From NCBI GenBank assembly GCA_030526995.1, contig JAUNBP010000004.1, positions 2,440 to 66,439 of the forward strand: a stretch of DNA of 64,000 bases. Direction: 5' to 3'. Of this stretch, positions 934-27,673 are shown piece by piece. The notes below the pieces were generated by a model. The model saw nothing but the letters and a program-made list of their open reading frames with translations. It had not been told where the DNA came from and searched no databases. Position 1 is the first letter of the stretch; every line of letters starts with the position of its first letter. The position numbers were made by a program, and so were the translations under genes. The stretch is from Clostridia bacterium. Its GTDB lineage: Bacteria; Bacillota; Clostridia; Christensenellales; CAG-138.

Positions 934-2713
934 TGAAAAAATCAAGGCGGTTGGCATTAATATTCAAGAGAAGGCAAACCTCATCTGGAATGTAGCAAAC
1001 TCACTTTTCGGAGCATACAAACCGCATGAATACGGTCTTGTTATTCTGCCAATGGTAGTAATCAAGCGTTTTCACGACTGTTTGCTGCCTACGCATGAAA
1101 AGATTCTGGAAACCTACGAAAAAATCAAGCACCTTGCGGTGCGGGATGGTTTTCTGTATTCAGCTTCAGGCTATCACTTTTACAATACCAGCCCATTTAC
1201 TTTTGAGCGATTAAAGACTGACCCGGAAAACATAAAGGCAAACTTTGAGGCGTACCTGGCAGGGTTCTCCGACAATATTGCCGATGTTCTGGCCCGCATG
1301 GGATTCTACAATCAAATCGACCGCATGAGTGATGCCGGAGTTTTGTACCAGGTCATTAGTGACTTCTGCGAGGACAACGCAGATATGAGTCCTGACAAGA
1401 TTTCTGCAATCGACATGGGCTATGTGTTTGAAAATCTTGTCCAGAGATTCTCTGAGAGCTACGATGAAGAGGCAGGTTCCCACTTCACCAGCCGAGACAT
1501 CATCTATCTGATGTGTGATATGCTGACGATGGAGGCAGACTTCTCCGACCCCGATGCTCCTGCCAAGACCGTATATGATATGGCGATGGGAACAAGCCAG
1601 ATGCTCACCTGTATGGAGGAGCGAATCAAGGCTCTGGACAGTGAGGCGGACATCATCTGCTATGGGCAGGAAATCAATCCATTCACCTTCGGTATTGCCA
1701 AGGCGGATATGCTCATCCGTGGCGGCGACCCGAACAATATGCAGTTCGGAAATACGTTGAACGACGATAAGTTCTCCGGCTACACCTTCGATTACTGCAT
1801 TTCCAACCCCCCCTTCGGTATTGATTGGAAGCGCGAAGCGACGGACATTGAAAAGGAATACAAGCTGGGCGATGCCGGACGCTTTGGCGTTGGTCTCCCG
1901 GCAAAGTCTGATGGTCAAATGTTGTTCATGCTAAACGGCATTGCAAAGTTGAAAGACACCGGCCGCATGGCAATCATACAGAACGGCTCATCCCTGTTTA
2001 CCGGAGATGCGGGCAGCGGCCAGAGCGAAATCAGGAGATACATTATTGAGAATGACTGGTTAGATGCCATTGTGCAGTTGCCGAACGACAGCTTTTATAA
2101 CACGGGCATTGCGACCTACATCTGGGTCATCACGAAAGATAAGCCGCAGTCCCATCGGGAACACGTCCTATTGATTGATGCCAGTGGCTGTTACGAGCAG
2201 CGCAGGAAGCCTATCGGCAACAAGCGTGTGGACATCACCGAGGTCTGCCGAAATCTAATCATTGAGGCTTATGGCGATTACACCAGCCGCACTTACACAA
2301 CCACCATTGTGGACGGCAAGACCATCACAGTCAAAAGCAAGAGGATGGAGTCAATTGCCCTTGGCTACAATAAAATCACGGTGGAGAGTCCCCGGCTTGA
2401 TAAGGACGGCAAGCCGGTTCTGAAAAAGGGAAAGCCGATAGCGGATACCTCCAAGCGAGATACGGAAGTTATTCCTCTGGACGAAGATATGGATGCCTAC
2501 TTCGAGCGAGAGGTTTTGCCTTACCGCCCGGGTGCATGGATTGATAAGGGCAAAACGAAGGTGGGTTATGAAATTCCGTTTACCAAGACTTTCTACGAGT
2601 ATTTGGAAATGGAGCCTGCCGATGAAATAGCGAAACGCATTAAGGCACATGAGCGTAACTTGATGACAAAGCTACAGGCACTATTTGGAAACGGCGGTGA
2701 GCAGGATGAATAG
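923..2713 (+). CDS. hsdM: Type I restriction-modification system, N6-adenine DNA methyltransferase subunit M
   Basis: It has the NPPF catalytic motif (CISNPPFGIDWK) and an HsdM-like N-terminal region. GGGAGG lies about 10 nt upstream of the ATG at 923. The stop overlaps the hsdS start, and hsdS and hsdR follow. Confidence 0.9.
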   Translation: MDSNEKIKAVGINIQEKANLIWNVANSLFGAYKPHEYGLVILPMVVIKRFHDCLLPTHEKILETYEKIKHLAVRDGFLYSASGYHFYNTSPFTFERLKTDPENIKANFEAYLAGFSDNIADVLARMGFYNQIDRMSDAGVLYQVISDFCEDNADMSPDKISAIDMGYVFENLVQRFSESYDEEAGSHFTSRDIIYLMCDMLTMEADFSDPDAPAKTVYDMAMGTSQMLTCMEERIKALDSEADIICYGQEINPFTFGIAKADMLIRGGDPNNMQFGNTLNDDKFSGYTFDYCISNPPFGIDWKREATDIEKEYKLGDAGRFGVGLPAKSDGQMLFMLNGIAKLKDTGRMAIIQNGSSLFTGDAGSGQSEIRRYIIENDWLDAIVQLPNDSFYNTGIATYIWVITKDKPQSHREHVLLIDASGCYEQRRKPIGNKRVDITEVCRNLIIEAYGDYTSRTYTTTIVDGKTITVKSKRMESIALGYNKITVESPRLDKDGKPVLKKGKPIADTSKRDTEVIPLDEDMDAYFEREVLPYRPGAWIDKGKTKVGYEIPFTKTFYEYLEMEPADEIAKRIKAHERNLMTKLQALFGNGGEQDE

Positions 2714-4034
2714 CACGGGGCATTATGACGAGATGAAAGACAGTGGCATCCAGTGGATTGGAATCGTTCCTGCCCATTGGAACGTTCGGACGCTATATCA
2801 GCTTGTCACGCGGGTGAACAATAAAAATTCCGACCTTGCCGAGCAAAACCTGCTCTCCTTGAGCTACGGAAAAATCAAACGCAAGGACATCAACACCAAT
2901 GACGGTCTGCTGCCGGCATCGTTTGATGGGTACAATGTCATCGAGAGCGGCGACATCGTTCTGCGTTTGACGGATTTACAGAACGACCGCACCAGCTTGC
3001 GGGTAGGACACGCCACGGAGCGCGGGATTATTACCTCGGCCTACACGACACTCCGCCCTATCAACTCCGCCCATTCCAGATACCTTTATTATTTGATTCA
3101 TGCCTTTGATATCAAAAAAGGATTTTACGGCATGGGGTCTGGTGTGCGGCAGGGATTGAACTACAGCGAGGTCAAGGAGCTACGAATAGCCATTCCTCCG
3201 CAAGCCGAGATGAATGCCATTGTGGCGTTTTTGGATGATAAGTGTGTCAAGATTGATGAGTTGATTGAGAGTGTCAATACTACAATCGAAGAATATAAAA
3301 GTTGGAAAATGTCCCTAATATTCAAAGCCACAACTATGGGCAACAATAGTGATGCAGAAATGGTAAAGTCAACTATTCCTTGGATTGAACGACATCCCTC
3401 GCACTGGCACACATTACCAATGAAACGTGTTATTCTATCTCGCGACAGTGGTGCTTGGGGAAATGAATCAAATGGAGATGTCAATGACAAAGTTTGTATG
3501 AGAATTTCCGATTTTGCATTTGAACAAGGCCGTTTCAAAGAATCCGTAGATTTGTTCACGGTGAGGAACTATAACCAATCAACCATTGATAAGTTGTCTC
3601 TTAAGTATGGAGATATCTTGGTTGAAAAATCTGGTGGTGGAGAAAAAACACCCGTTGGAAGGGCTGTTATGTTCAATCTTCCTATTGATGCGCTATTTGC
3701 AAATTTTATGGATAGACTGAAGATTGATTCGAACATCGTTACACCCGAGTTTTTTGAGTATTACTGGCGTGGTATGTATTTTAGATCCGTGACTTCGGCT
3801 TACATTAAACAAACCATCGGATTTCAAAACCTAAACCTCGCAGGTTTGTTAAACTCGGAGTTTGTTTTAGTTCCACCCAAAGATGAGCAATGTGCTATTG
3901 TTAGCTATTTAGACGATTTGGGCACGCAAATCGATACACTTGTTGAAAATAAGAAAAACTTACTTTCTGAGCTGGAAATATACAAGCGTTCCCTCATATA
4001 CGAAGCCGTAACCGGCAAAAGAAAGGTGGTGTGA
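2706..4034 (+). CDS. hsdS: Type I R-M specificity subunit S (two target-recognition domains)
   Basis: It sits between hsdM and hsdR. It shows two-TRD architecture with conserved coiled-coil spacers (central ...[14 protein letters not shown]..., C-terminal ...[19 protein letters not shown]). The ATG at 2706 overlaps the hsdM stop. Confidence 0.85.
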
Positions 4035-4036
4035 CT

Positions 4037-7000
4037 ATGAGCGAGAACAAGGGTTTCCAAGAGCGAATGCAGGCATATCAAGATGCTGCGCATCGCATGG
4101 ATGAAAGCGAGAAAAACTTTGAATCGTTTATCGAGTCCTATCTAATATCCGAAGAAGGCGGCTGGACAAAAGCTACTGATGCTGGACTGCGCAGCGAAGA
4201 AAGTCGCGGACTGAATGTGGATATTGTGACGTTGACCGACTTTGTCAAGGTTACCCAGCCGATGGCTTGGCGGCGCTTCGAGCGGATGTGTACCATCAAT
4301 CCAGTGCGCCAGTTCTATAAGTCTTTCGAGAATGCCGTCACCCAGGACGGTTTGATCTCCGTGCTTCGCTATGGATTTAAGCACCGTGGCATTGCTTTCC
4401 GTGTGTGCTATTTCAAGCCGGAGTCCGAATTGAATGACCTTGCAACAAAGCATTATCAGCAGAATGTCTGCCAGTGCATCCGCCAGTGGCACTATTCTGA
4501 GCAGAACAACAACACCATCGATATGGTGCTTGCCATCAACGGCATCCCGGTCATCGCCATTGAACTGAAAAACCAGCTGACCGGGCAGTCCGTGGATGAT
4601 GCAAGGAAGCAGTGGGCATATAACCGCAATCCCAAGGAGCCTGCATTCGGATTCAACAAGCGCATCCTGGCTTATTTTGCCTGCGATTTGTACGATGTCT
4701 ATATGACCACCCGTTTGGAAGGTCCCATGACAAATTTCCTACCTTTCAACCAGGGCAGCAACGGTGCGGGCAAGGACGGTGGAGCGGGAAATCCGAAGAA
4801 TGAGAGCGGTGGCTATGTGACCGCTTACTTCTGGGAGAATGTTCTGCAAAAGGATAAGCTGCTGGATATCCTCCAGAAATTCATCAGCTACGAGAAGTCC
4901 GAGAAAAAGGAAATCCTCCCAGATGGTTCTACTAACATTAGGACTTCCGAAAAAATCATCTTCCCCCGCTACCACCAGTTGGATGTCGTGCGGAAGCTGG
5001 TTGACCATGTCCGAGAAAACGGTCCGGGGCACAACTATTTGATTCAACATAGTGCGGGTTCCGGCAAGTCTAACTCTATCGCATGGACAGCCTACCGCAT
5101 GGCAAGCCTGCACGATGTCAACAACGAGGCAGTTTATGACAGTGTGATTGTCGTTACCGACCGCCGTGTTCTGGATCAACAGCTTCAAGCCACCATCTCC
5201 AGCTTTGACCATACGCTTGGAAGTGTAGAGACAATTGATGACAAGAAAAGCTCTGCCGATCTCCGTGATGCTATCAACAAGGGCAAGCGCATCATTGTTA
5301 CCACCCTGCAGAAGTTTCCTGTCATTTATGAGCAGGTGGAATCCGCAGTGGGCAAGCACTATGCCATTCTTGTAGATGAGGCGCACAGCAGCCAGACCGG
5401 GCAAGCAGCAATGAAGCTGAAAGCAGCACTTGCAGATGTATCTGACGCTTTGCAGGAGTACGCTGAACTGGAGCAGAAGGCCATAGAGGAAATCGAAGCC
5501 AAGGACATCATGGTGCAGGATATGTTGAAACAGGGACGCCACAAGAATCTCAGCTTCTTCGCCTTCACCGCTACACCGAAGAGAAAAACACTGGAGATTT
5601 TCGGCGAACCGCAGCCGGACGGTTCTTTCCATCCTTTCCATATTTATTCCATGCGTCAAGCAATCGAAGAGGGATTTATCCTTGATGTTTTGGCTAACTA
5701 CACCACATATAAGATGTGCTATCAGATTGCCAAGAACGTGCCGGAAAACCCGGATGTTCCGACTTCCAAGGCGGTGCGTACCATCCGCCGCTATGAGGAG
5801 CTGCATCCGCATAACCTCCAGCAGAAGGCGGCTATCATCGTGGAGACCTTCCGGGATGTCACTAAAAAGAAAATCGGCGGTCTTGGAAAGATGATGGTGG
5901 TTACGGCATCGCGTCTTGCTGCCGTCCGCTACTACCACGAAATCAAACGGTATCTTGAGCAGAACAACTATGATGACATAGAAATCATGATTGCATTCAG
6001 TGGAAGTCTGAAAGACCCGGATGATCCCAGCAGCCCGGAGTACACTGAAAGCTCTATGAATGTGGACAGAAACGGCAATCGGGTCAAGGAGAGCCAGACA
6101 AAAAGTGTGTTCCACGATGAGGGAGACATACTGATTGTTGCAGAAAAGTACCAGACTGGATTTGACGAGCCGTTGCTTCACACCATGATTGTGGACAAGG
6201 AGTTGCGGGATGTGAAAGCGGTGCAGACTTTGAGCCGCCTGAACAGAACCTATCCCGGCAAAATCGACACCTATGTATTGGATTTTGTGAATGATGCGGA
6301 GCGTATTAAGGAGGCGTTCCTGCAGTTCTATCAGGAAACCAGCCTAGATGAGGAGATTAACTTTGATCTGATATACACCACACAGAAAATTCTGCGAAAT
6401 TTCCATGTCTACACGGAGGCTGATATTGCTGCGGTTTCGGATATTTATTTTGACCCGGACATCCGCAAGGCAAACGCCACACAGGGCAAAATATCCAACA
6501 TCCTGAAACCTGTGGCCGATAAGTACAATCAGCTGAACCAGGAACAGAGATACCAATTCCGTCGGGAAGTCAGAGCGTTTGTGAAGTGGTATAACTACAT
6601 TTCACAGATAACTCGGATGTTTGACAAGGAACTGCATCAGGAATATATCCTCTGCTCCTACCTCACAAGACTGCTTCCGTCCGACCCGGTTCTGCCGTTT
6701 GACCTTGACAATCGTGTGAAGCTCGAATACTATCGTCTTGAGAAAACATTTGAAGGTTCTATCGAATTGCAGACGACTTCCAGCTCTTACAAGCCGACTC
6801 AGCCCAAGCGTGCCGGCGGGCAAAAAGAGCGCACCAGTCCTTTGGATGAGATTATCGCTCGTATTAACGAGGAATTCTTCGGTGACTTCACCGATGCAGA
6901 CCGCGTTATGGTAGACACCCTTTATACTAAAATGCGGAAGGACTCCAAGGTTAAAAAAGCGGCAAAGAGTAATGACCGACAAGTATATGAGCGTAGTATC

Positions 7001-7153
7001 TTTCCTAGTATCTTCGACACGACTGCTCAGCAGGCGTATATGGATGATATGCAGGCGTATGAACAGCTGTTTTTGGACGCCGAAAAATATCGCATCATTC
7101 AACAGGCACTTGCGGAACGGCTGTATAGAGAACTTCATGGAGAGACGAAGTAA
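4037..7153 (+). CDS. hsdR: Type I restriction endonuclease subunit R (SF2 helicase/nuclease)
   Basis: Walker A is [10 protein letters not shown] and the DEAH box is [12 protein letters not shown]. The product is 1038 aa. AAAGGTGG lies 7 nt upstream of the ATG at 4037, so the GTG at 4031 is too close to the SD to be the start. Confidence 0.9.
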
Positions 7154-7168: not shown

Positions 7169-9001
7169 ATGGCAATTAATATTGCACCAGAATCTATAGA
7201 TACAGCGCTGGATATTTTGATGCGTGAGGTCCGTGACGGAAAGGAGCAACTACCAGAGTTTCAGCGTGACTGGACTTGGGATGATGGTAGAATAAGGGGC
7301 ATACTTGCGAGCCTATCCCAAGGTTACCCTATGGGCGCAATCATGCGGTTGAAGTATGGCAACGAAAATATAAAATTCAAGTATCGAACTTTTGAGGGGG
7401 TAAATGCTCCTGGAGTTACGCCGGAGTTTCTCGTGCTTGATGGGCAGCAGAGGCTTACTTCTATGTATCGTGCAACGATGGCAAAGGATGCCGTTGTTAC
7501 TAAGACCGATAAGGGGAAGGCAATTCAACGATTTTATTATCTCGACATGAAACTGTGCCTTGACGAAAGTCAAGATCGCTATGATGCTGTTATTGCCGTT
7601 CCTGATGATAAAAAAGTGAAAACGGATTTTGACCGTAAAGTTTTACTGGATTTGTCTACCCGAGAACTGGAATACGAGCACGAGATGTTCCCCATCAACA
7701 TCGTTTTCGACAGCAGCGCCAGAGAGGATTGGGCAGATGGGTATAAGGAATATCACAACTACGAAAAAACATACATGGAGAGGTATAAGCAGTTCCGCAC
7801 CGATGTGATAGAAACCATCACTGGGTATAAACTGCCAGTTATCACACTTGGCCGGGATACTCCCCGTGAAGCGGTTTGCAAGGTTTTTGAAAATGTCAAT
7901 ACGGGCGGAGTCTCGTTGACAGTGTTTGAGCTGGTAACAGCAACTTTTGCCACATATGAATTTGACCTTCGAAAGGACTGGGAGGCTTGTCGTGACATTA
8001 TTTGGGGCAAGGGAGAGCCGTTAAATACCGATGTTATGCATGGCGTGGACGAAACTGCATTCTTGACAACGGTCACTCTATACAGCAGCTATTTGGCCGA
8101 TACTATGACGACCTGCAAAAAGAAAGACGTGCTTGCACTTCCGTTTGATGCATACCAGTCAAACAAGAAAGCAGTTCTTGAGGGATACAAAATGGCCCGA
8201 AAATTCCTGTTTAGCCAATACGTGTTCCGCAGGAGAGATCTGCCATATACCACGCAGTTGATTCCGTTGGCCGCCATTTGTGCCGTGATTGGTAAAAGCA
8301 CCTTCAATCTTCCACAAACGCAAAACATCCTCAAGCAATGGTATTGGTGTGGAATTATGGGTGAAATGTACGGTGGTGCTAACGAAACAAGATATGCAAA
8401 CGATATAGAAGATGTGGTTGCTTTGATAAAGGGCAAGCCAAGTGCGAACAGAACAATGGGTGCTGCCTATTTCTCCGCCACACGGCTGATTTCACTCCAA
8501 ACAAGAAACAGTGCTGCCTATAAAGGAATCATGGCACTTGTCTATCGGGCACAGTGTAAAGATTTCATGCAGGGAACAACGATGGACATTGTGAAGAGTA
8601 TGGATGAGTCCCCAGACATACATCACATATTCCCAGAAGCCCACTGCATGAAAAAGGGCTATAGCAAAGATAAATGGAACTCCATCATCAACAAGACACC
8701 CTTGCTCCCTGCTTCTAACCGTCAGATTGGTGGCGAGGCGCCGAGTGTATATAGCCAAAAAATCATGAAAAGTGCTCAGATTGACGAGGCAGAATTACAA
8801 TTGCGAGTGGAGTCTCACATGGTAAACTTCGATGCGTTTATCCATGATGATTTTGATACATACTTCATTGACCGAGCAAAAGCGATTATGAAAGTCATTG
8901 AATCAGCGATGGGTAAGGCTATATCCGACAAGGCATCGGAGCAGACCATTAAGATTTACGGAGTTGACCTTGAGGACAAAGCGGTCAACTTAACTTTTTA
9001 A
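7169..9001 (+). CDS. GmrSD-like type IV (modification-dependent) restriction enzyme, DUF262 + DUF1524 domains
   Basis: The N-terminal DUF262 signatures are LPEFQRDWTW and LDGQQRLTS. The C-terminal His-Me/HNH-like DUF1524 signature is DIHHIFPEAHC...NKTPLLPASNRQIG. It starts 15 nt after hsdR. Confidence 0.8.
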   Translation: MAINIAPESIDTALDILMREVRDGKEQLPEFQRDWTWDDGRIRGILASLSQGYPMGAIMRLKYGNENIKFKYRTFEGVNAPGVTPEFLVLDGQQRLTSMYRATMAKDAVVTKTDKGKAIQRFYYLDMKLCLDESQDRYDAVIAVPDDKKVKTDFDRKVLLDLSTRELEYEHEMFPINIVFDSSAREDWADGYKEYHNYEKTYMERYKQFRTDVIETITGYKLPVITLGRDTPREAVCKVFENVNTGGVSLTVFELVTATFATYEFDLRKDWEACRDIIWGKGEPLNTDVMHGVDETAFLTTVTLYSSYLADTMTTCKKKDVLALPFDAYQSNKKAVLEGYKMARKFLFSQYVFRRRDLPYTTQLIPLAAICAVIGKSTFNLPQTQNILKQWYWCGIMGEMYGGANETRYANDIEDVVALIKGKPSANRTMGAAYFSATRLISLQTRNSAAYKGIMALVYRAQCKDFMQGTTMDIVKSMDESPDIHHIFPEAHCMKKGYSKDKWNSIINKTPLLPASNRQIGGEAPSVYSQKIMKSAQIDEAELQLRVESHMVNFDAFIHDDFDTYFIDRAKAIMKVIESAMGKAISDKASEQTIKIYGVDLEDKAVNLTF

Positions 9002-9100: not shown

Positions 9101-9145
9101 AGGGCTTCCAAAGTCAGCGATTGACCACGGAAGCCCTTATTTCAA
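9101..9145 (+). terminator. Putative intrinsic terminator after the GmrSD-like gene
   Basis: The stem is AGGGCTTCC (9101-9109) paired with GGAAGCCCT (9129-9137), with an inner GTCA/TGAC helix, followed by TATTT. The loop is long, so confidence is only moderate. Confidence 0.4.
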
Positions 9146-10590
9146 GCCTTTTTCAGCACTTTTCGGCTGGAGAGGGCTTTCTCTATTGTATCAAAATCTG
9201 CATTTACATAGACCCCGCCTGCGGCAGTGGCGGTATGTTCGTTTCCTCCGCCGATTTCACGGAGCAATACGGCGCAAGCGCCAACACCGTTATGACCTTT
9301 TTCGGGCAGGAGAAGGTGGACTATAACGCCAAGCTCTGCCTAATGAACATGGCTGTCCATGGTTTGAATGCGAAGATTGTTTCCGGCGACGAGGCCAACA
9401 GTTTTTATCACGATGCGCACAATCTGGAGGGCTGCTGCGATTATGTCATGGCTAATCCGCCGTTCAACGTGGATAAGGTCAAGAGCGAAACGGCGCAAAA
9501 CGCCGGACGGCTTCCCTTCGGGCTTCCCGGCGTGAACAAAAACAAGGAAATAAGCAACGCCAATTATCTTTGGATCTCCTATTTTTACGCATATCTGAAC
9601 GAAGCAGGCAGAGCCGGGTTCGTTATGGCGTCCTCGGCAACGGACAGTCAAGGCAAGGATAAGGAGATAAGAAAACAACTTATAGAAACCGGTCATGTGG
9701 ACGTGATGATGTCGGTCAGCAACAATTTTTTCTACACCAAAAGCCTGCCCTGCTCTCTGTGGTTCTTTGATAAAGGCAAGGCGGGAGCCATCCGCGATAA
9801 GGTTCTGTTTATAGATTCCCGTAACTACTATACAGCCGTTGACCGAACCCTCAACGAGTGGAGCGAGTGGCAGATGAAAAACCTGAACGCAATCGTGTGG
9901 CTGCACCGCGGGGAGACGGAGAAGTATCGTGCTTTGCTCGATGAATATAACAACGAACTAAAAAACCAGTTCAAAATAATTGATTGGCAAGCCGATATGA
10001 TGTCACGGATGACCGACAGTTATTATTATGTGCCATTGCTCACATATGCACAAGGGTTTCAGTCAACCTGCGATTGCATTAGTTCCGTTTGGGATTGTAT
10101 GGCACAGGAATCGGCAATTAATGGTTTTATGTCAATGCAGACTGCACAGGTGAAGGCTTTTGTAAACAGCGTAGATGAACAACTGCAAAACAAGCCGAAA
10201 TCGGAATGGACCGGTTTTGCGCAAAGCTACGGTGTTTCAAAATGGCGTGGATACAAAAAATCCGTACTCCAATTGCTCGATCATCAAACAGAGCAGCTAA
10301 AAGACTTGCTCTCGATAATTGAGGAAGCTCGTTGGCTGACCGACAAATTTGGAGATGGCGTATATGCGGATATTCCGGGGCTTTGCCGTGCGGCAACGAT
10401 TGCGGAAATCAAAGAAAAAGGCTGGTCGCTGACGCCCGGCGCCTATGTCGGAGTTGCTCCCGCCGAGGACGACGGCGTGGACTTTGCAAGCCGCATGAAG
10501 GAGATACATGCAGAGTTGCTCACCTTGCAGGAGGAGTCGAACAGGTTGATGAAAACCATCTCGGAGAATATGGAGGAGATGGGGTTATGA
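9121..10590 (+). pseudogene. hsdM: 5'-truncated type I methyltransferase subunit M (N-terminal about 150-200 aa missing)
   Basis: Recognisable HsdM homology starts at SAM motif I (IYIDPACGSGGMF) only about 30 codons into an ORF with a TTG start. NPPF (VMANPPFNVDKV) and the long C-terminal region are present. No HsdM N-domain or FxTP region is seen upstream; the upstream 120 nt is a terminator-like hairpin. Confidence 0.7.
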
Positions 10591-11759
10591 TTTTTTTAAA
10601 TAAAGTAATGCTAAACCCGCATGTGTCTTTAAAAAAGGGCAAACAATACCCGTTTGTCGAGATGGCAAATGTTGGATGTTTCAAAAGGGAACCCGAAAAA
10701 GTTACTATGAAGACGTTCGAATCTGGTGTTAAATTTGAAGATGGAGATACAGTAATAGCAAGAATAACCCCTTGCTTACAAAATGGAAAAGGGTTTTATT
10801 GTCATGGAATAGGTAAGGGATTTGGTTCAACAGAATTTATTGTTTTTAGGCCACGAGATAAAAGTGTTTATGGCAAGTATCTCTATTACTTAATGCAAAC
10901 CAATGACATGCGCGAAAGTCTAATTAAATCAATGGTTGGAGCAACAGGCCGCCAGCGAGTTAACAATGATGTGTTTAACAGAATTGATGTGAATTTTCCT
11001 CTATTTGAAATCCAGCATCGCATTGCCGACATTCTTTCCGCCTACGACGACTTAATTGAAAACAACCAGAAGCAAATCAAGCTGTTGGAGGAAGCGGCGC
11101 AGCGGTTGTATAAGGAATGGTTCGTTGACCTCCGCTTCCCCGGCTGGGAAACCACGCCCATTGTAGACGGCGTACCGGAGGGGTGGGAGAAAAGAATCGT
11201 TAGTGATTTCGGTGAAATAATTACAGGGAAAACTCCTTCCACAGCAAATTTGGATTATTATGGCGGGAATATCCCTTTTGTTACTATACCTGATATGCAT
11301 GGACAAATATTTACATTAGCAACTGAAAAGACATTGACCAAAGCAGGTGCGAATACACAGGAAGGAAAATATCTTCCTAAAAATGCAGTAATGGTCTCAT
11401 GCATTGCTACGGTCGGTCTTGTGAATATTGCAGCAGAAATTTGTCAAACAAACCAACAGATAAATTCTGTGATTCTTAATGAAGAAAAGGATTTGTACTT
11501 CTTTTATGAATCAATGAAACGCATAAAAACTCTATTAGACGGTGTTGGTAGCAATGGTGCAACTATGACTAATGTTAACAAGACTAAATTCAGTAATATT
11601 AACGTGCTGTATCCAACAGAAGCGTTAGTGAGCAATTATCACGATTTTTGCTTGACTATCTTTGAAAAAATATTGAGTTTATCTGCATCTGTACGAAAAG
11701 CACAACAAGCCCGCGACCGTCTGCTGCCCAAGCTGATGAGTGGAGAATTGGAGTTTTAA
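10587..11759 (+). CDS. hsdS: Type I R-M specificity subunit S
   Basis: The ATG at 10587 overlaps the stop of the truncated hsdM (ATGA). There are two TRDs with a central conserved region (IADILSAYDDLIENNQKQIKLLEEAAQRLYKEWFVDLRFPG) and a C-terminal ARDRLLPKLMSGELEF. Confidence 0.85.
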   Translation: MIFLNKVMLNPHVSLKKGKQYPFVEMANVGCFKREPEKVTMKTFESGVKFEDGDTVIARITPCLQNGKGFYCHGIGKGFGSTEFIVFRPRDKSVYGKYLYYLMQTNDMRESLIKSMVGATGRQRVNNDVFNRIDVNFPLFEIQHRIADILSAYDDLIENNQKQIKLLEEAAQRLYKEWFVDLRFPGWETTPIVDGVPEGWEKRIVSDFGEIITGKTPSTANLDYYGGNIPFVTIPDMHGQIFTLATEKTLTKAGANTQEGKYLPKNAVMVSCIATVGLVNIAAEICQTNQQINSVILNEEKDLYFFYESMKRIKTLLDGVGSNGATMTNVNKTKFSNINVLYPTEALVSNYHDFCLTIFEKILSLSASVRKAQQARDRLLPKLMSGELEF

Positions 11760-11760
11760 A

Positions 11761-12420
11761 ATGGATAACTTCTTAAAATGGGCGAGTGAAAATAGTGCGG
11801 TTATTAATCTTATAAGCGTTGTTATTGCTTTATTGTCATTAATCGTTACAAGCCTATTAACGGTCTTGATAATAAAGCAAACAACTCACCTTAATCGTAA
11901 GCAAGTGCAAATGGAGCAGGAGATAAACACACAACAGGTACAGATGCAGAAACGTCAATTATGCGTCGATACATATCCGTATAAACGCGAGATTTATGCT
12001 AATTTATTCGCTGTTTTTGCTGTGTGCCAGGGCTTGACTCAAACGGTTAAGCTCGAACAGTTGCTGTTAATGGATTGTGAAAAAGTGTTTTCATACTATA
12101 AGTTTATTCAAGAAGCAAGCGTGCCAGATGTTAAAGCAGTGTTTTGGAGCTTGAGAGAAGCCCAATTTGTAATGACAACCGACATATCTTCTGCTATACT
12201 GGAAATACGGCAAAAATTTGACGATATGTGCGGTTGCTTTTGTTCGCTCGATGCTTTATCTAAAGTATTGAAAACGGAGAAATTGTCGACAGAATTGGAA
12301 AAAATCAAAAGGCACAATGTAACTCAAGGATTACGGCTGTGCAATGAAATACTTGCGTATTCGGACTATATGGAGTCAGTTATGCCAGATGCCATGAACA
12401 TCGGCGGGATAGAGCGGTAA
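11761..12420 (+). CDS. Hypothetical membrane-anchored protein (219 aa) embedded between hsdS and hsdR
   Basis: The ATG lies 1 nt after the hsdS stop. One N-terminal hydrophobic helix (AVINLISVVIALLSLIVTSLLTVLII) is followed by a predicted helical soluble region. No family was recognised. Confidence 0.6.
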   Translation: MDNFLKWASENSAVINLISVVIALLSLIVTSLLTVLIIKQTTHLNRKQVQMEQEINTQQVQMQKRQLCVDTYPYKREIYANLFAVFAVCQGLTQTVKLEQLLLMDCEKVFSYYKFIQEASVPDVKAVFWSLREAQFVMTTDISSAILEIRQKFDDMCGCFCSLDALSKVLKTEKLSTELEKIKRHNVTQGLRLCNEILAYSDYMESVMPDAMNIGGIER

Positions 12421-12509: not shown

Positions 12510-15500
12510 ATGAGCTACGAATACTCCGAAAACATATTGGTGCAGAACAGCGCTGGAAATGTCTTGCATGACAGGTTGGACTGGGATGTTGTGTACGCTT
12601 ACAATACCGAGGTGTTGGGCGAGAACGGAACCTTGGGGCGGCGCTCGTACAAGGAAATTGTGTTAGTGCGGTATCTGAAAAAGGCGCTGTTTGCTCTAAA
12701 CGACTGGATGACGGAAGAGTATGCTAATTTTGCAGTCAAAACGCTTTGCGCCTACACCGCCTCTGCCTCTTTAATGCAGACCAACGAGGAGAAGTATTTT
12801 ATGCTCCGTGACGGCATTCCTATACAGGTGAAGAAGTCGAACGGCACGTATGAAACAAAGTATGCCCGTGTATTTGATTTTGCAGAGCCTGAAAACAATC
12901 ATTTTCTCGCCGTCAAGGAGATGAAAATTCACGGGGAGCTGTATCGCCGCCGCACCGACATTGTGGGTTTTGTCAACGGTATTCCCCTGCTGTTCGTCGA
13001 GCTGAAAAAGCAGACGGTGGATGTGAAAGCCGCCTATGACGGCAACTATACGGATTATCTGGATACCATTCCGCAGTTGTTCCGATTCAACGCCTTTCTG
13101 ATGCTCTCCAACGGTTTGAAGGCAAAGGTCGGAACGATGGGCTCGAAATATGAGTTTTTCCACGAATGGAAGCGTCTTAAAGAAGATGAGGCAGGTGCGG
13201 TCGACTTGGAAACCATGCTGCTCGGCATTTGTGACAAGCATAATTTTATGGACTTGTTTGAAAACTTCATCCTCTTTGACCATTCGGGCGGCAAGACTGC
13301 GAAAATTCTTGCCCGCAACCATCAGTATCTCGGCGTCAATGAAGCTGTGGCGTCCTACAAGGCAAGGAAGTTGAAAGACGGCAAGCTCGGCGTGTTCTGG
13401 CATACACAAGGCAGCGGGAAAAGCTATTCGATGGTGTTTTTAGCGCAAAAGATTCGCCGCAAATTTGCCGGCTCTCCGACCTTCGTTATTCTGACCGATC
13501 GGGACGAGCTGAACAAGCAAATTTCCGACACCTTTGAAGCCTGCGGCTGCCTAAGCGGGGTAAAAGCAAGCAGCTTTATTCCGGAAAACGGTGCCAAGCT
13601 GGAAGCCATGCTGCGGGGCAATCCAAGCTATATCTTCACGCTGATACACAAGTTTAATCAGCCCAACCCAACGCCCATCGTGCCAAACCATGATATCATC
13701 ATCCTGTCGGATGAAGCGCATCGGACGCAAAACGGAATCTTTTCGGACAATATGTGCAGGATGCTCCCAACGGCTTCCCGAATCGGTTTTACAGGCACTC
13801 CGCTTTTCAGATACGATAATATCACTGAACGCACCTTTGGCAGCTATGTTTCGATCTATGACTTCAAGCGGGCTGTGGACGACGGCGCAACCGTGCCCCT
13901 ATACTATGAAAATCGAAGCGATATGCTCGGCATTGAAAATCCCGATATCAACGACGAGTTGTTAAATGCAATCGAAGCAGCGGATTTGGATGTGAGCGCA
14001 CAAGCAAAGCTCGAATCCGAGCTTGCCAAGGACATTCATATTATCACGGCAACGCCGCGCCTCGATGCCATCGCAAGGGATTTTGTCGAGCATTACTCCG
14101 AGCTTTGGACAACCGGCAAAGCCATGTTTGTCTGCGTAAACAAAGTAACCTGTGTGCGCATGTACAACCTTGTTGAGCATTACTGGCAGAAAAAGATTGC
14201 GGAGCTTGAAGTCAAGCATTCGGTGGCCTCGCAGCAAGAAGCGCTGGAGCTTGAACGCAAAATTGCATGGATGAAAGAAACCGAAGCGGCGGTAATAATC
14301 AGTCAGGAGCAAAATGAAATCCAAACATTCAAAAATTGGGGACTGGACATTTTGCCGCATCGCAAGAAGATGGAAACGCGGGAGATGGACAAGGAATTCA
14401 AGGATCCCGATAATCCGTTTCGCATCGTATTCGTCTGTGCAATGTGGCTGACCGGTTTTGACGTGAAAAGCCTTGCCACCGTTTATTTGGACAAACCTCT
14501 GAAAGCCCATACGCTGATGCAGACCATTGCCCGTGCCAACCGTGTGTGCGACGGAAAGAGCAACGGGCTTATCGTGGATTACATAGGAGTTGTAAAGGCT
14601 TTGCGGCAGGCGCTGGCGGACTACACCTGCGCGGGCGGCGGCAAGGGCGCAAATGATCCCATACCCGATAAATCGGAGCTTTTGAAAAAGATTGCCGACA
14701 CAATAATCAGCATCGAAAAGCATATGGCGGAGAACGGTTTTTCACTGAAAGCCTTGGTTGAGGCAGGCGATTTTGCAAAGCTATCATTGGTGGCGGCGGG
14801 TGCCAATGCAATGTGCGCAACGGACGACATAAAAAAGAGGTTTGAAATTCAGGCAAGAGAGCTTTTCCGTATGTTCAAATATGTTGAAAAGCGCGAGGTA
14901 TCGGACGAAACCCACCGTTACAAAAACGCCGTCAGCGCGATTTATGAGCAAATGCAGCAAAAGCGCATTCGCTCCGATAACTCGGCGCTTATGGCGAACA
15001 TTAACGAGATCGTCGGCAATTATATTCGGGTTGAGCGAGCCACGGACAGCCCTGCCGAAAGCAAAAAGTTCGATATAAGTAGTATAGATTTTGACCGACT
15101 GCGTAAAGAATTCGAGCGAGTTAAAAATAAAAATCTGCTGATGAAGGATTTGCAGTCGCTTGTCGAGGAACGCCTTGCCAAAATGTTGCGAGATAATCCT
15201 TTAAGAATAAACTACTATGAAAGATACCAAGAAATTGTGGACGAATACAATAAGGATAACAAGAAGGATGAAATCTCCGTTGTGTTTGAAAATCTGATGA
15301 AGCTGGTGGGTGAGCTGGACGACGAGCAGAAGCGATATATAAAAGAAGGGTTCAACAGCGACGAGGAGCTTGCAATCTACGATCTGCTTTTCAACGATTC
15401 CCTGTCAAAAGAAGATATTAAAAAGGTCAAGGCACTGGCTCAGAATATGCTGTCGAGAATCAAGGCCCGCATATGCGAGCTTGACCGCTGGACGGATAAG

Positions 15501-15641
15501 GAAGAAACTCGTGCAATCATTGATACGATGATTCGTGATATGCTGTTTACGGACCTGCCCACAAGTTATGACGATACGGCGCTTGGGCGATACCGCCAGC
15601 AGGTATTTGAATATGTATATACGGCATATCCGGCAGCGTAG
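12510..15641 (+). CDS. hsdR: Type I restriction endonuclease subunit R
   Basis: Walker A is HTQGSGKSYS and the DEAH box is IILSDEAHRTQNG. It has helicase motif VI-like QTIARANR. The product is 1043 aa. Confidence 0.9.
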   Translation: MSYEYSENILVQNSAGNVLHDRLDWDVVYAYNTEVLGENGTLGRRSYKEIVLVRYLKKALFALNDWMTEEYANFAVKTLCAYTASASLMQTNEEKYFMLRDGIPIQVKKSNGTYETKYARVFDFAEPENNHFLAVKEMKIHGELYRRRTDIVGFVNGIPLLFVELKKQTVDVKAAYDGNYTDYLDTIPQLFRFNAFLMLSNGLKAKVGTMGSKYEFFHEWKRLKEDEAGAVDLETMLLGICDKHNFMDLFENFILFDHSGGKTAKILARNHQYLGVNEAVASYKARKLKDGKLGVFWHTQGSGKSYSMVFLAQKIRRKFAGSPTFVILTDRDELNKQISDTFEACGCLSGVKASSFIPENGAKLEAMLRGNPSYIFTLIHKFNQPNPTPIVPNHDIIILSDEAHRTQNGIFSDNMCRMLPTASRIGFTGTPLFRYDNITERTFGSYVSIYDFKRAVDDGATVPLYYENRSDMLGIENPDINDELLNAIEAADLDVSAQAKLESELAKDIHIITATPRLDAIARDFVEHYSELWTTGKAMFVCVNKVTCVRMYNLVEHYWQKKIAELEVKHSVASQQEALELERKIAWMKETEAAVIISQEQNEIQTFKNWGLDILPHRKKMETREMDKEFKDPDNPFRIVFVCAMWLTGFDVKSLATVYLDKPLKAHTLMQTIARANRVCDGKSNGLIVDYIGVVKALRQALADYTCAGGGKGANDPIPDKSELLKKIADTIISIEKHMAENGFSLKALVEAGDFAKLSLVAAGANAMCATDDIKKRFEIQARELFRMFKYVEKREVSDETHRYKNAVSAIYEQMQQKRIRSDNSALMANINEIVGNYIRVERATDSPAESKKFDISSIDFDRLRKEFERVKNKNLLMKDLQSLVEERLAKMLRDNPLRINYYERYQEIVDEYNKDNKKDEISVVFENLMKLVGELDDEQKRYIKEGFNSDEELAIYDLLFNDSLSKEDIKKVKALAQNMLSRIKARICELDRWTDKEETRAIIDTMIRDMLFTDLPTSYDDTALGRYRQQVFEYVYTAYPAA

Positions 15642-15740
15642 GCGGAGCGGACTTGGGGGCTTGAGATCGAACATGTTGTATTCGAATATCTTCGAGATAA
15701 TTTAGCCACAATCAAAGCAACTATTGAGAGAGGTTTGAAT

Positions 15741-17354
15741 ATGAATGATGCAATACATCAAGGAAAAGTCATAAAGTACCTGAGAGACTATCCAAATGTA
15801 GGGGTCTTAATACCAATATATGGAAAGATGTCGAAGCTTGGGACTGATGCTTTTTTTCAATGCTGTTTAGCACCAATTGAACTTGTTAAGGAAGAGATGA
15901 AAACGGATTGTACGAATAACTGGAGTAAGTGTACCCCGGGCTTTACGCAATGCACGTCTGGGGATGACAGTCAAATCGTCTATCATCGATTTGGCAACGG
16001 GGATGGCTTTGAGCCACTTATTATAGAACGAAATTTCGATGGACTTGGTATTGATAATAGTCTTGAAGTATCCGAAGAATTCAGGCTTATTAACAACCTC
16101 TGTTTTGACCGTGTAAAGAACGAATATGTCGATCCGGAAAACGAAACAACTGTAGTCAAAATCGAAAATGGATTGGTAACAATTCACAAGAACTATTTAA
16201 AAAGATTTTTAGCGGTAAAACAAATGTCGCTCCTTGTTCATCTTAGCAGTCGCGCTCACAACGATGGTGTTGACCCTGAAATAGAGCAAATAAGCAAGCC
16301 GATTTGTCTTGACGGAAAAAACACAACTATATCTTACGGCATAGATCATTTTGCCAAGTCGGAGAGGAATTACTCAAGTATTTATGCGAAAATGTTTATT
16401 AATGGGTGCAATCTATGCGATTGTGGGTACTGGCCCTATTCAGAAAGGCAAAGGAAATATGAAGAATTCATTGTAGGTGTTGATAATTCCGGGAAAGATG
16501 TTACTTTTACATCAGATCCCAATCTGCTAAATGGACACGGTAAAATGAATGAGAATTCACCCCACTATTTTACACCGATATTCTTTAAGCGTGCTGTTCT
16601 GCAAAAGTATTATGACTCTCCAAAAAAATATGAAATCGGTGGTGGGTTCCTGCGTTGCGGCAACAAGTGGCTTTTATACATTGACAACCAAAGTGCGGAT
16701 TATGTCGTTGCCTATCTGGGCGATCTGGGCAGGGATTTACCGTCGCAAAGTGAACAGCAACACTGGTGGCAATACAATATAAGCATTGATGGTGAATTAA
16801 GCAGGGCAAAATGGCAGCGTGATTTTGGCGGAAAGTTTACTGACCCTGATTCACCGGTTTTTCTGTTTCAGGAAAAATACAAATTAGTAAACGAACTGTA
16901 TGAGGAACAGCTCGGATGGACATTATTCTTGCCCCTCAATACCGATGATACATATAATTTTACCGGACTGCGCATTCCTTTGAGTAATGCTCAGCCGGAG
17001 TTCGATATGCAGATTCTTTGCCTGGTCAAGGTGCTTATCGATTCATTTAATGAGAAGGAACTATCCGCAGCTTGCGACAATAACGCATCGACTCCCAAAC
17101 ATAGTATAGGGAAATTTGAGCAATTTCTGAAGGTTAAAGGGGTGAAAGATTATGAAACCCATATCCGTTTTCTGAGAGACTTACAAGGACTTAGGTCAAC
17201 CGGAATAGGTCATCGCAAGGGAAAATACTATGTAAAAACCGCTAATAAATTCGGGTTGCCGGAAAAAGATTTCAAAACAGTATTCATTGAAATCATTGGT
17301 AAAGCTACGGAGTTTCTAAGCTATGTTCAGGACATTGTGCATGAAATACATTAA
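15741..17354 (+). CDS. Hypothetical protein (537 aa), no recognised family; C-terminal R-x5-H (HEPN-like?) motif
   Basis: It is a long AT-rich ORF with GAGAGAGG upstream of the ATG at 15741, about 100 nt downstream of hsdR on the same strand. The C-terminal helical region contains LRSTGIGHRKG (nt 17193-17213). Confidence 0.65.
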   Translation: MNDAIHQGKVIKYLRDYPNVGVLIPIYGKMSKLGTDAFFQCCLAPIELVKEEMKTDCTNNWSKCTPGFTQCTSGDDSQIVYHRFGNGDGFEPLIIERNFDGLGIDNSLEVSEEFRLINNLCFDRVKNEYVDPENETTVVKIENGLVTIHKNYLKRFLAVKQMSLLVHLSSRAHNDGVDPEIEQISKPICLDGKNTTISYGIDHFAKSERNYSSIYAKMFINGCNLCDCGYWPYSERQRKYEEFIVGVDNSGKDVTFTSDPNLLNGHGKMNENSPHYFTPIFFKRAVLQKYYDSPKKYEIGGGFLRCGNKWLLYIDNQSADYVVAYLGDLGRDLPSQSEQQHWWQYNISIDGELSRAKWQRDFGGKFTDPDSPVFLFQEKYKLVNELYEEQLGWTLFLPLNTDDTYNFTGLRIPLSNAQPEFDMQILCLVKVLIDSFNEKELSAACDNNASTPKHSIGKFEQFLKVKGVKDYETHIRFLRDLQGLRSTGIGHRKGKYYVKTANKFGLPEKDFKTVFIEIIGKATEFLSYVQDIVHEIH

Positions 17355-17578
17355 TCTCAATCCAATCAAGCACAAAACAAAGCATGGGTAGAATAAAATC
17401 GCACATTTGACAACCAAAAACTGGGGAGTATAGGTTTGGAATCAAATAATCCCCGTCTTGAATGTAATCGATGTTCGTAGCCATAAAACTCACCTCCTGT
17501 CATCAGCGTAACCGGAGGTGAATTGAAGTGCAAATATGCGAATTGGTTTTGAACTAACGGACATCGGTCGCACGACCC

Positions 17579-17950
17579 TCACATTCCAACCAACTTCTTC
17601 ACCGTGTTTGCAGTTCTGATTGTAAGCTTGGGGGCGATGGAGGTGGTTGCGGTTTTGGCCCACCAGTTTGTTTTTTGGTAGTCCGTGCGGCTGTAAGACC
17701 AGAAGATTGCATCGCCGCAGGCCGTTATCCTTTCCAAGCCCTCCTTGGGTTCGCCGAACTCGAAGAGGACGTCGGAAACAGTTGCGGGCGGCATAATGAA
17801 AATCAGCGTGTCGTAGATTGCCTTATCGTCCGTTCCCCACCAGGAGAGAGCCGTTTTCAAGATGGCTTCGAGCCGTTCCGTGGCGATATCAAAAACGGGA
17901 ACGGCGGCGCCGAATTGTGCCATTATAGCGGCTTCAATTCTTGCCGTCAA
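17579..17950 (-). CDS. Hypothetical protein (123 aa)
   Basis: Its composition is protein-like, whereas the antisense 99-aa ORF is Arg/Gly-rich. It starts 29 nt downstream of ptsI on the same strand. No family was recognised. Confidence 0.45.
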   Translation of the reverse strand: MTARIEAAIMAQFGAAVPVFDIATERLEAILKTALSWWGTDDKAIYDTLIFIMPPATVSDVLFEFGEPKEGLERITACGDAIFWSYSRTDYQKTNWWAKTATTSIAPKLTIRTANTVKKLVGM

Positions 17951-17978
17951 TTACACCGTGTCCACATAAATTAAAAAC

Positions 17979-27507: not shown

Positions 27508-27510
27508 CAA

Positions 27511-27673
27511 TGAAATTTGCCCTTCGGGCAAGTGAAATGGCTTCGCCATGAAATATTTGCAGGGCAAATGTGAAATGTGCTGTGGCACATAGGGCAAATT
27601 TTATTTCATATCGAACGAAGTGAGATATTTCATGCCGAGCGCAAGCGAGATATTTCATATTGCACTGCAATAT
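27511..27673. repeat. Array of short perfect hairpins punctuated by TGAAAT / ATTTCA
   Basis: Five perfect hairpins are present. They are TTGCCC-TTC-GGGCAA (27517-31), ATGGC-TTC-GCCAT (27537-49), ATTTGC-AGG-GCAAAT (27555-69), ATGTGC-TGTG-GCACAT (27575-90) and ATATTGC-ACT-GCAATAT (27657-73). TGAAAT precedes the left-hand units, and ATTTCAT recurs at 27604, 27628 and 27653. Confidence 0.7.

Follow-up and report, generated by a model that had tools for sequence, protein, structure and literature searches.

What is the protein of 537 amino acids (aa) whose gene closes a defence island of a Clostridia bacterium, directly behind the hsdR gene of a type I restriction-modification (R-M) system, and what could it do there? 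The gene lies in a stretch of 64,000 nucleotides (nt) of contig JAUNBP010000004.1 (assembly GCA_030526995.1, positions 2,440 to 66,439 of the forward strand), which we refer to as the window. An earlier interpretation made without database searches, hereafter the sequence-only reading, had described the product as an orphan with a possible C-terminal HEPN-type RNase motif (R-x4-6-H) and an N-terminal part that could be a sensor. Our analysis shows that the protein is built of two parts and that a loop carrying R485, H491 and K493 (the R/H/K loop) is among the most conserved features of its family. As judged from structural models, it probably represents a new family of HEPN-like effectors with a novel N-terminal domain, and a role in defence is plausible. 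The interpretation that we favour, tentatively and with slightly less than even confidence, is that of a stand-alone, horizontally mobile conflict protein of the defence or abortive-infection (Abi) type, in which a C-terminal HEPN-type RNase is joined to an N-terminal sensor.

The protein is encoded by an uninterrupted open reading frame (ORF) on the plus strand, as established from the ORF list and the translation (the coordinates of this and the other features are collected in Table 1). The ORF finder lists the TTG codon at 15735 as the start; however, because the Shine-Dalgarno sequence GAGAGAGG is spaced by 1 nt from this TTG and by 7 nt from the ATG codon at 15741, the ATG is the credible start. 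The motif LQGLRSTGIGHRKG is present, with R485 encoded at nt 17193-17195 and H491 at nt 17211-17213. The nucleotide positions previously assigned to the motif (17193-17213) were therefore exact, whereas the accompanying residue numbers, R487 and H493, fit the unlikely TTG start and are two too high for the ATG.

A single R-x4-6-H match is in itself no more than expected by chance, as at least one is found in 80% of shuffles of this sequence (mean 1.5), but the conservation of this one is far beyond chance. It is the sole R-x4-6-H of the protein, and the loop that contains it falls within one of the four most conserved 15-residue blocks. In 116 homologs sharing 39-58% identity with the protein, R485, S486, H491, K493, G494 and Y497 are invariant. 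The loss of the Arg and the His among homologs had been set beforehand as a reason to abandon the HEPN assignment; in 90 more divergent representatives (30-40% identity), H491 is conserved in 90/90, R485 in 88/90, K493 in 89/90 and a Tyr or Phe at position 497 in 90/90, H491 being one of only five residues that are invariant in this set. The family consensus of the loop reads L-R-S-x-G-x-A-H-R-K-G-x-x-Y. The spacer between the Arg and the His usually comprises five residues, and four (R-x4-H) in 12 of the 90 representatives. The loop is kept in Planctomycetota, Cyanobacteria, Nitrospirota, Dehalococcoidia, Saccharibacteria (candidate phyla radiation, CPR) and in a Methanophagales archaeon. Upstream of it, a second conserved cluster is formed by acidic residues: F421 and D422 are conserved in at least 90% and E420 in at least 70% of the 90 divergent homologs, and E420 is invariant in the 116 closer ones. 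A phospholipase D (PLD) reading of H491-R-K493, as part of an HxK-x4-D motif, was rejected, as no conserved Asp is found four residues after the Lys.

Where does the loop sit in the protein? The AlphaFold2 model of the whole protein, built from the 116 sequences, has a mean predicted local distance difference test score (pLDDT) of 89.6 and a predicted template modelling score (pTM) of 0.74; residues 1-345 are beta-rich and residues 346-537 are all helical. A separate model of the C-terminal domain gave a similar result (pLDDT 85.7). The last ~60 residues had been thought to be helical: helical they are predicted to be, but the helical region extends over all of residues 346-537. In the models, R485 is located near the C-terminal end of a helix (residues 472-488) and H491 in the following loop (489-494), before helices 495-503 and 511-536, and extra helices (438-465) precede helix 472-488. 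As read from the predicted secondary structure only, this placement of the Arg and the His is the position that defines the HEPN motif. From the predicted helices, the conserved residues and the description of the fold in PMC3710099, we infer a HEPN helix layout in which helix-1 would span residues 372-391, helix-2 residues 418-432, an insert residues 438-465, helix-3 residues 472-488 and a kinked helix-4 residues 495-503 and 511-536. In known HEPN domains helix-4 is often kinked, as in 1wwp, helices 2 and 3 are frequently separated by inserts, and helix-2 often bears a conserved acidic residue (PMC3710099). When the C-terminal model was compared with the PDB by using Foldseek, HepT or 1wwp chains ranked 1, 3, 4 and 5 by E-value (probability 0.63-0.87; TM-score 0.42-0.51 normalised to the target). 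The HepT chains matched were 7bxo_H/D, 6m6u_H and 5yep_C, with 5yep at rank 7, and the HEPN domain of sacsin (3o10) was found at rank 43.

Several results weigh against a HEPN nuclease that acts in defence. All HEPN fold matches are sub-significant (E 0.39-2.2; TM-score 0.40-0.51 normalised to the target, 0.26 for sacsin), and the comparison of the whole protein with the PDB and BFVD gave nothing significant and no HEPN match. At the sequence level, HEPN Pfam families were not found at E≤10 in 26 C-terminal sequences, nor at E≤1 in 90 full-length members of the family. The profile-profile check that had been proposed, run as hhalign against a HepT/DUF86 profile, returned a probability below 1% in every variant, without alignment of the motifs. 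For comparison, the paper that defined the HEPN superfamily relied on HHpred probabilities of 75-98% (PMC3710099). This negative result lowers the HEPN claim without excluding it, because the HepT profile is shallow (effective number of sequences, Neff, 1.8) and DUF86 was the sole HEPN family compared profile-to-profile. A HepT fragment from the PDB was fetched with a bait consensus, and the protein search with this fragment yielded nine short fragments; the profile itself was derived from a full-length DUF86/HepT gene, found with its nucleotidyltransferase partner on a Cytobacillus plasmid, and from its homologs, the search with the Cytobacillus HepT having returned close homologs only. Within the loop, the residue after R485 is a Ser in 76 of the 90 representatives, which is polar but atypical compared with the N/D/H found mostly in HEPN proteins, and the strongly conserved H-R-K-G extension is not a HEPN feature; no E-x3-[KR] motif, the form that the acidic residue of HEPN helix-2 often takes, was found in the candidate helix-2. 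The N-terminal region, with its many conserved acidic residues, could itself be catalytic. As regards defence, the protein has 0 matches among the 5,027 defence protein models of PADLOC-DB v2, a tblastn search of 50,697 phage genomes found no member of the family, and about one third of the neighbourhoods of homologs consist of plain housekeeping genes. The proposed fit to the HEPN signature is thus borne out by the conservation and position of the motif and by an all-helical bundle for which HEPN proteins top the PDB list, but not by the single match, which is at chance level, by the significance of the fold matches (E 0.4-2.2, TM-score about 0.5 normalised to the target), or by Pfam and hhalign.

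Other assignments were considered and set aside. A match to EAD6 (PF19958) at aa 427-450 was regarded as noise, since it covers 24 residues, is found in 1 of 90 members and has an E-value (0.012-0.035) that fails the cut-off. Weak HTH_SB matches in 8 of the 26 close C-terminal sequences (best E 0.0027) were rejected, as none is listed for the 90 divergent members. Three family profiles, when searched against PDB sequences, matched only at chance level (2eap, 2hn1, 1wj5, 4yzh). A novel relaxase or mobilisation protein, an idea prompted by the mini-element context, is not favoured either: no HUH-type motif was seen, homologs occur in integrative and conjugative elements (ICEs) that have a relaxase of their own, and copies are found inside R-M operons. 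The N-terminal region, which is proposed to be the sensor or regulatory part, has conserved residues of its own (E109, E113, K217, D301, D315, D328, E338 and W342). It shows no internal repeat and no similarity to the C-terminal region, no significant fold match in the PDB or BFVD, and no Pfam signal in the 90 members. The sole whole-protein PDB match with a high Foldseek probability is Avs3 (0.94/0.87 over 193-206 columns; E 0.25, TM-score 0.20 normalised to the query), and it does not recur with the C-terminal domain alone.

How widespread is this family? The protein had been called an orphan; in fact, 1,336 homolog clusters were found in a database clustered at 90% identity, nearly all of them full length (~540 aa), and a profile search recovered 2,256 representatives of 50%-identity clusters, 906 of which have E-values below 1e-30. 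The earlier statement that it belongs to no recognised family holds: neither Pfam nor NCBIfam has a matching model, all homologs are named 'hypothetical protein' at the source, the 90 members searched against PADLOC yielded just four scattered single matches (E 0.007-0.18), and a literature search by accession numbers returned no paper. In a set of one genome per species, 74 loci were identified, the majority in Bacillota (Clostridia, Veillonella, Streptococcus, Domibacillus). Further loci belong to Verrucomicrobiota, Planctomycetota, Bacteroidota, Cyanobacteria, Nitrospirota, Dehalococcoidia, Alpha- and Gammaproteobacteria, Saccharibacteria, Ignavibacteria and Deferribacteres, and one to a Methanophagales archaeon. 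This patchy phyletic spread, together with the low GC content of the gene in the window (~40%, vs 53-57% in the adjacent host genes) and its carriage elsewhere as the cargo of a recombinase block of ~3-4 kb, indicates that the family is horizontally transferred. Among 72,556 plasmids, a single full-length copy was found. The other plasmid matches are partial, and the three that were inspected are truncated remnants associated with insertion sequences (IS); C-terminal-only plasmid matches were therefore rejected as alternative architectures. The homolog of Streptococcus sp. Marseille-Q5986 (L057:9986-11606, given here and below as locus and coordinates) is split into two ORFs of 395 and 117 aa and is probably a pseudogene.

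We then asked in which company the gene travels. At 67 loci, most of the flanking genes are separated from the homolog by more than 100 nt, and no operon partner is conserved; because of this, the protein would act alone. Only three neighbour families recur. Large serine recombinases are found at 14 loci. A TRAM/U5-methyltransferase gene (RlmCD/RumA-like), itself just 30-77% identical between hosts, lies directly upstream on the same strand at 13 loci, with a gap of 200-570 nt. The third neighbour, confined to one subclade, is an ORF of 228 aa located directly downstream at 7 loci and 94-99% identical across genera (75% for the Streptococcus L057 copy). The homolog, the 228-aa ORF and a serine recombinase on the minus strand form a block of ~3-4 kb whose DNA is 93-96% identical between genera and 81% identical to the Streptococcus copy, and which starts ~40 nt before the stop codon of the upstream host RlmCD/RumA-like gene at the loci that have this gene. 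These DNA comparisons suggest that the block is a minimal unit of integration that uses the rumA hotspot. Single serine integrases that belong to streptococcal and clostridial ICEs are documented to target rumA (PMC4701971); the orientation differs here from the arrangement described there, and we claim a shared hotspot only. Other copies lie at the edges of ICEs, adjoining RepA_N/ParAB/type IV secretion system (T4SS) or relaxase modules, and one such variant recurs in 58 blocks of the collection. The 228-aa ORF starts 41-106 nt 3' of the homolog (L023:1637-2323, L024:11678-12364 and L043:11678-12364, with equivalents in L028, L045, L057 and L067) and is recognised by neither Pfam nor PADLOC; it may serve as a partner, as an immunity protein or as a recombination directionality factor of the recombinase unit. 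The L026 unit is without this ORF, and in the Streptococcus L057 block the recombinase is also shortened (304 aa).

Is the place behind hsdR a rule or an accident of this genome? The gene had been described as the distal, co-directional end of a defence island, and indeed it is the last gene of the island, 100 nt after a full-length hsdR on the same strand; a scan of the gap found no promoter-like or terminator-like site. From left to right the island comprises an ISL3 transposase fragment, a first type I R-M system, a GmrSD-like gene, a second type I R-M system and the gene itself, and beyond its 3' end follow a convergent ptsI and then genes for a sugar phosphotransferase system (PTS). At the other loci, type I R-M components lie within 10 kb at ~5 of 67 only. 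A specific partnership with type I R-M was consequently rejected, and the adjacency to hsdR in the window does not reflect an obligate one. Enrichment in defence neighbourhoods, another of the expectations of the sequence-only reading, was upheld in its broader form but not as a tie to hsdR: R-M, Abi, McrBC and GmrSD genes and mobile elements are often near. Within 10 kb, defence genes (R-M, Abi_2, PLD, McrBC, KAP/TIR or GmrSD) are present in 6, and mobile-element genes in 8, of the 11 neighbourhoods annotated with Pfam. The 146 ORFs found within 2.5 kb at 35 non-redundant genome loci include 7 DNA methyltransferases of three kinds, 3 ResIII/DEAD, 3 DUF1016 and 2 GmrSD_N proteins, 4 serine recombinases and 2 integrases. 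One homolog is flanked by Vsr and a DrmC-like PLD nuclease, with a C5 methylase and a GmrSD_N gene upstream of it; others are near McrBC, near Abi_2 and PLDc_2, near a KAP NTPase, TIR_2 and Dam, or near type I R-M genes. The gene is more strongly associated with mobile elements, namely with serine-recombinase units at rumA and with the edges of ICEs, than with hsdR. A separate segment, L005:9488-9961, may be a remnant of a decayed defence locus.

Three longer relatives bear extra C-terminal domains, namely HTH_3, PNP_UDP_1 and GmrSD_N. The PNP_UDP_1 fusion P0176 (857 aa; L099:157-2730) is the only one of 145 motif-covering representatives without both H491 and K493; it is encoded by one uninterrupted ORF on a contig that was seen in three samples. 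That the loop is lost in the very protein that has gained another effector-type domain agrees with an effector function of the loop, as far as a single case can suggest from sequence. An ORF of 486 aa without Pfam match follows P0176. The GmrSD_N fusion P0211 (883 aa; L100:2888-5539) keeps the motif. The genes on either side of it, for HsdS/DUF1016_N and an AAA_15/AAA_21/DUF3696 ATPase, overlap it at their stop and start codons, and the arrangement resembles a composite defence operon set within a type I R-M locus.

How would such a protein work? We propose that the C-terminal domain is a divergent HEPN-type domain in which R485, where helix-3 ends, and H491, in the loop to helix-4, would form a metal-independent endoribonuclease site, probably assisted by K493 and by the acidic residues E420 and D422 of helix-2. 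Dimerisation would complete the site, as it does in other HEPN enzymes, whose RNA products carry 2',3'-cyclic phosphate ends. The N-terminal region would silence the RNase and release it on sensing an invader or the failure of neighbouring defences, and the resulting RNA cleavage would stop the growth of the infected or invaded cell, that is, would cause abortive infection. The place behind hsdR could then be explained by the clustering of defence islands and mobile elements; several HEPN families are embedded in R-M operons (PMC3710099). A fuller version of this proposal describes a widespread single-protein immunity family that combines a sensor of novel fold with an R/H/K nuclease site, either divergent HEPN-type or HEPN-convergent, and that spreads between phyla as ICE cargo and as the near-sole cargo of the ~3-4-kb serine-recombinase unit at the 3' end of rumA. 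We consider it possible, though rather doubtful as a whole.

The division of labour between the two parts could also be the reverse. The N-terminal beta-rich region would then be the effector, for example a DNA nuclease of an unrecognised or highly divergent PD-(D/E)xK/Cap4-like kind, and the helical tail with its basic R/H/R/K/G loop a non-catalytic nucleic-acid- or nucleotide-binding or regulatory module, the whole resembling a nuclease of modification-dependent or type IV-like restriction or of defence. The conserved acidic residues and K217 listed above would suit such an effector, three of the five most conserved 15-residue blocks are located in this region, some HEPN domains are non-catalytic binders (PMC3710099), and family members co-occur with GmrSD_N, a type IV restriction module, to which one of them is fused. 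The disappearance of the Avs3 match when the C-terminal domain is compared alone likewise suggests that the N-terminal region is involved; however, this match is not significant. As no nuclease family is recognised by Pfam or PADLOC among the 90 members, no D...(D/E)xK arrangement can be made out by inspection, and the loss of H491 and K493 in the PNP_UDP_1 fusion fits an effector role of the loop, we regard an N-terminal effector as unlikely. A different doubt concerns the loop itself, which might be a non-HEPN enzyme or binding site, for example for phosphotransfer or nucleotide processing, with a likeness to HEPN that is convergent, as small helical bundles would lead one to expect, and a function other than RNA cleavage. 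All of the HEPN evidence is indeed sub-threshold, fold matches of helical bundles are notoriously unspecific, and the Gly-rich S-x-G-x-[AG]-H-R-K-G stretch may recall a phosphate-binding loop. But HEPN proteins cluster among the best-ranked fold matches, the motif stands exactly at the HEPN-defining position, and no search supports any other family, so that a site of this kind seems improbable to us.

Does the protein serve the host or the element that carries it? It might act in the establishment, exclusion, anti-defence or addiction of ICEs, in which case its adjacency to R-M genes would reflect the accretion of mobile DNA. That it is the main cargo of the ~3-4-kb recombinase block in several genera, that rumA is a documented serine-integrase target (PMC4701971) and that ICE-edge copies stand beside RepA/ParAB or relaxase/T4SS modules, one variant recurring in 58 blocks, would all agree with such a service. 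Against this, some copies belong to R-M operons in which stop and start codons overlap, one is flanked by Vsr and a PLD nuclease, and others have non-mobile housekeeping surroundings. The family is moreover absent from the phage genomes searched and has one full-length copy in the plasmids. Such scarcity in phages and plasmids is unusual for anti-defence genes. Since defence genes are themselves typical cargo of ICEs, the context discriminates only weakly; taking these points together, we give a function in the service of the mobile element little credence.

A stand-alone HEPN-type defence protein, as we favour it, would in its working be most like the abortive-infection nucleases associated with R-M systems. 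PrrC and RloC likewise combine a regulatory N-terminal part with a C-terminal domain bearing an R...H pair, which is essential in these proteins; they are linked to type I R-M and have been proposed to provide a second line of defence when restriction fails (PMC3710099). In the window the gene comes directly after hsdR, and a type I R-M operon encloses one homolog. In contrast to PrrC and RloC, no NTPase family (ABC/Rad50-type) or P-loop was found in the protein with Pfam, NCBIfam or PADLOC, its N-terminal region is beta-rich, and there is no sequence or profile similarity. PrrC is moreover encoded between hsdS and hsdR in a type Ic hsdMSR locus, whereas the gene studied here lies after hsdR, and most of its homologs are away from type I R-M. 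The best structural matches of the C-terminal domain, although sub-significant, are HepT (DUF86; 5yep, 6m6u, 7bxo) and 1wwp, and HepT shares an R-x4-5-H at the end of a helix and the next loop, followed by a long terminal helix. HepT is, however, a single-domain toxin of ~130 aa with an adjacent nucleotidyltransferase (MNT) antitoxin (type VII), whereas the domain studied here forms the C-terminal end of a protein of 537 aa that has no MNT neighbour. No profile-profile similarity connects the two, and the motif is R-S-x3-4-H-R-K-G here and R-N-x3-H-x-Y in HepT. A motif scan of the window and of the fetched loci found no MNT gene beside a small HEPN-like ORF.

Abi2/AbiD/AbiF and ApeA are also single proteins associated with defence islands or R-M systems and have a conserved Rx4-6H (PMC3710099), and an Abi_2 gene is present in the island of one homolog. 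Unlike them, the protein matches neither PF07751 nor the PADLOC Abi models; its size is far greater and its N-terminal region is distinct. ICEBs1 carries an anti-phage gene (PMC8880864), a single ICE-borne accessory gene able to protect its host, which offers an analogy of genomic lifestyle only. In Avs/STAND proteins, an effector at the N-terminus and a sensor at the C-terminus accompany a STAND NTPase core; no NTPase motif or family is seen in the protein, and the Avs3 fold match is sub-significant. The protein is therefore filed as a member of an undescribed family that joins a novel N-terminal region to a HEPN-like module with an extended R-S-x3-4-H-R-K-G signature. If the family is a defence or abortive-infection effector, it would add a large unannotated group (more than 2,000 clusters at 50% identity) to the immune genes of prokaryotes, common in human- and animal-gut Bacillota and invisible to Pfam, NCBIfam and PADLOC. 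The N-terminal region, which is without detectable relatives, could be a new sensing module, and the almost invariant R/H/K loop provides an immediate mutational handle. Carriage at ICE edges and in the minimal rumA recombinase unit would, if true, exemplify how single defence genes move between distant bacteria. Another HEPN-like Abi candidate is in itself not astonishing; what makes this one a worthwhile target is how large the family is and how completely it has gone unannotated, together with its novel N-terminal region and the minimal recombinase-borne unit.

Table 1. Coordinates of the gene, its proposed domains and sites, the other genes of the island and the recombinase blocks (window positions unless a locus is given)
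Feature	Position	Strand	Basis
Coding sequence of the 537-aa protein, stop codon included	15741..17354	+	ORF and translation
Shine-Dalgarno sequence GAGAGAGG	15726..15733	+	Read from sequence; 7 nt before ATG 15741
N-terminal beta-rich region, aa 1-345	15741..16775	+	AlphaFold2 secondary structure, pLDDT mostly >85
C-terminal all-helical domain, aa 346-537, HEPN-like	16776..17351	+	AlphaFold2 models
E420-F-D422, acidic residues of candidate helix-2	16998..17006	+	Conservation
Signature loop R485-S-T-G-I-G-H491-R-K493-G-K-Y-Y497, proposed active site	17193..17231	+	Conservation
ISL3-family transposase fragment	64-933	+	Partial DDE_Tnp_ISL3 match
hsdM/S/R #1	887-7153	+	Pfam and PADLOC scans
GmrSD_N protein	7169-9001	+	Pfam; PADLOC HEC-05/PDC-M55C
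hsdM/S #2	9121-11759	+	Pfam and PADLOC scans
226-aa ORF without assigned family	11740-12420	+	Pfam and PADLOC scans
hsdR #2	12510-15641	+	Pfam HSDR_N, SWI2_SNF2, ResIII, T1R_D3-like
Copies of the ~3-4-kb recombinase block	L043:9675-13084, L024:9664-13528, L045:9665-12764, L057:9954-13542		DNA comparison

The remaining observations concern the surroundings of the gene in the window. At the left edge of the R-M island, the ISL3 fragment extends over the start of hsdM #1; its presence marks an association of the island with mobile elements. The hsdM #2 ORF has a TTG start, lacks HsdM_N and matches N6_Mtase only from profile position 51, and it overlaps the hsdS #2 ORF by 259 nt; the true starts are probably different, or hsdM #2 is N-terminally truncated or frameshifted. 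The 226-aa ORF located between hsdS #2 and hsdR #2 is matched by neither Pfam nor PADLOC. Its place is the one taken by PrrC in the EcoprrI type Ic locus, and it may thus be another accessory gene embedded in an R-M system. A non-coding gap of 624 nt (17355-17978) separates the stop codon of the gene from that of the convergent ptsI, and no terminator-like hairpin was found there in a simple scan. Repeats around the gene are at chance level only (a 16-nt direct repeat at 15834/17624 and a 15-nt inverted repeat at 16532/17950). No tRNA genes were found in the whole 64-kb window. A Gut-1 RNA (Rfam RF01706) is present at 27508-27581 on the plus strand, with a score of 60.4 bits against a gathering score of 50, which fits a gut-associated host.

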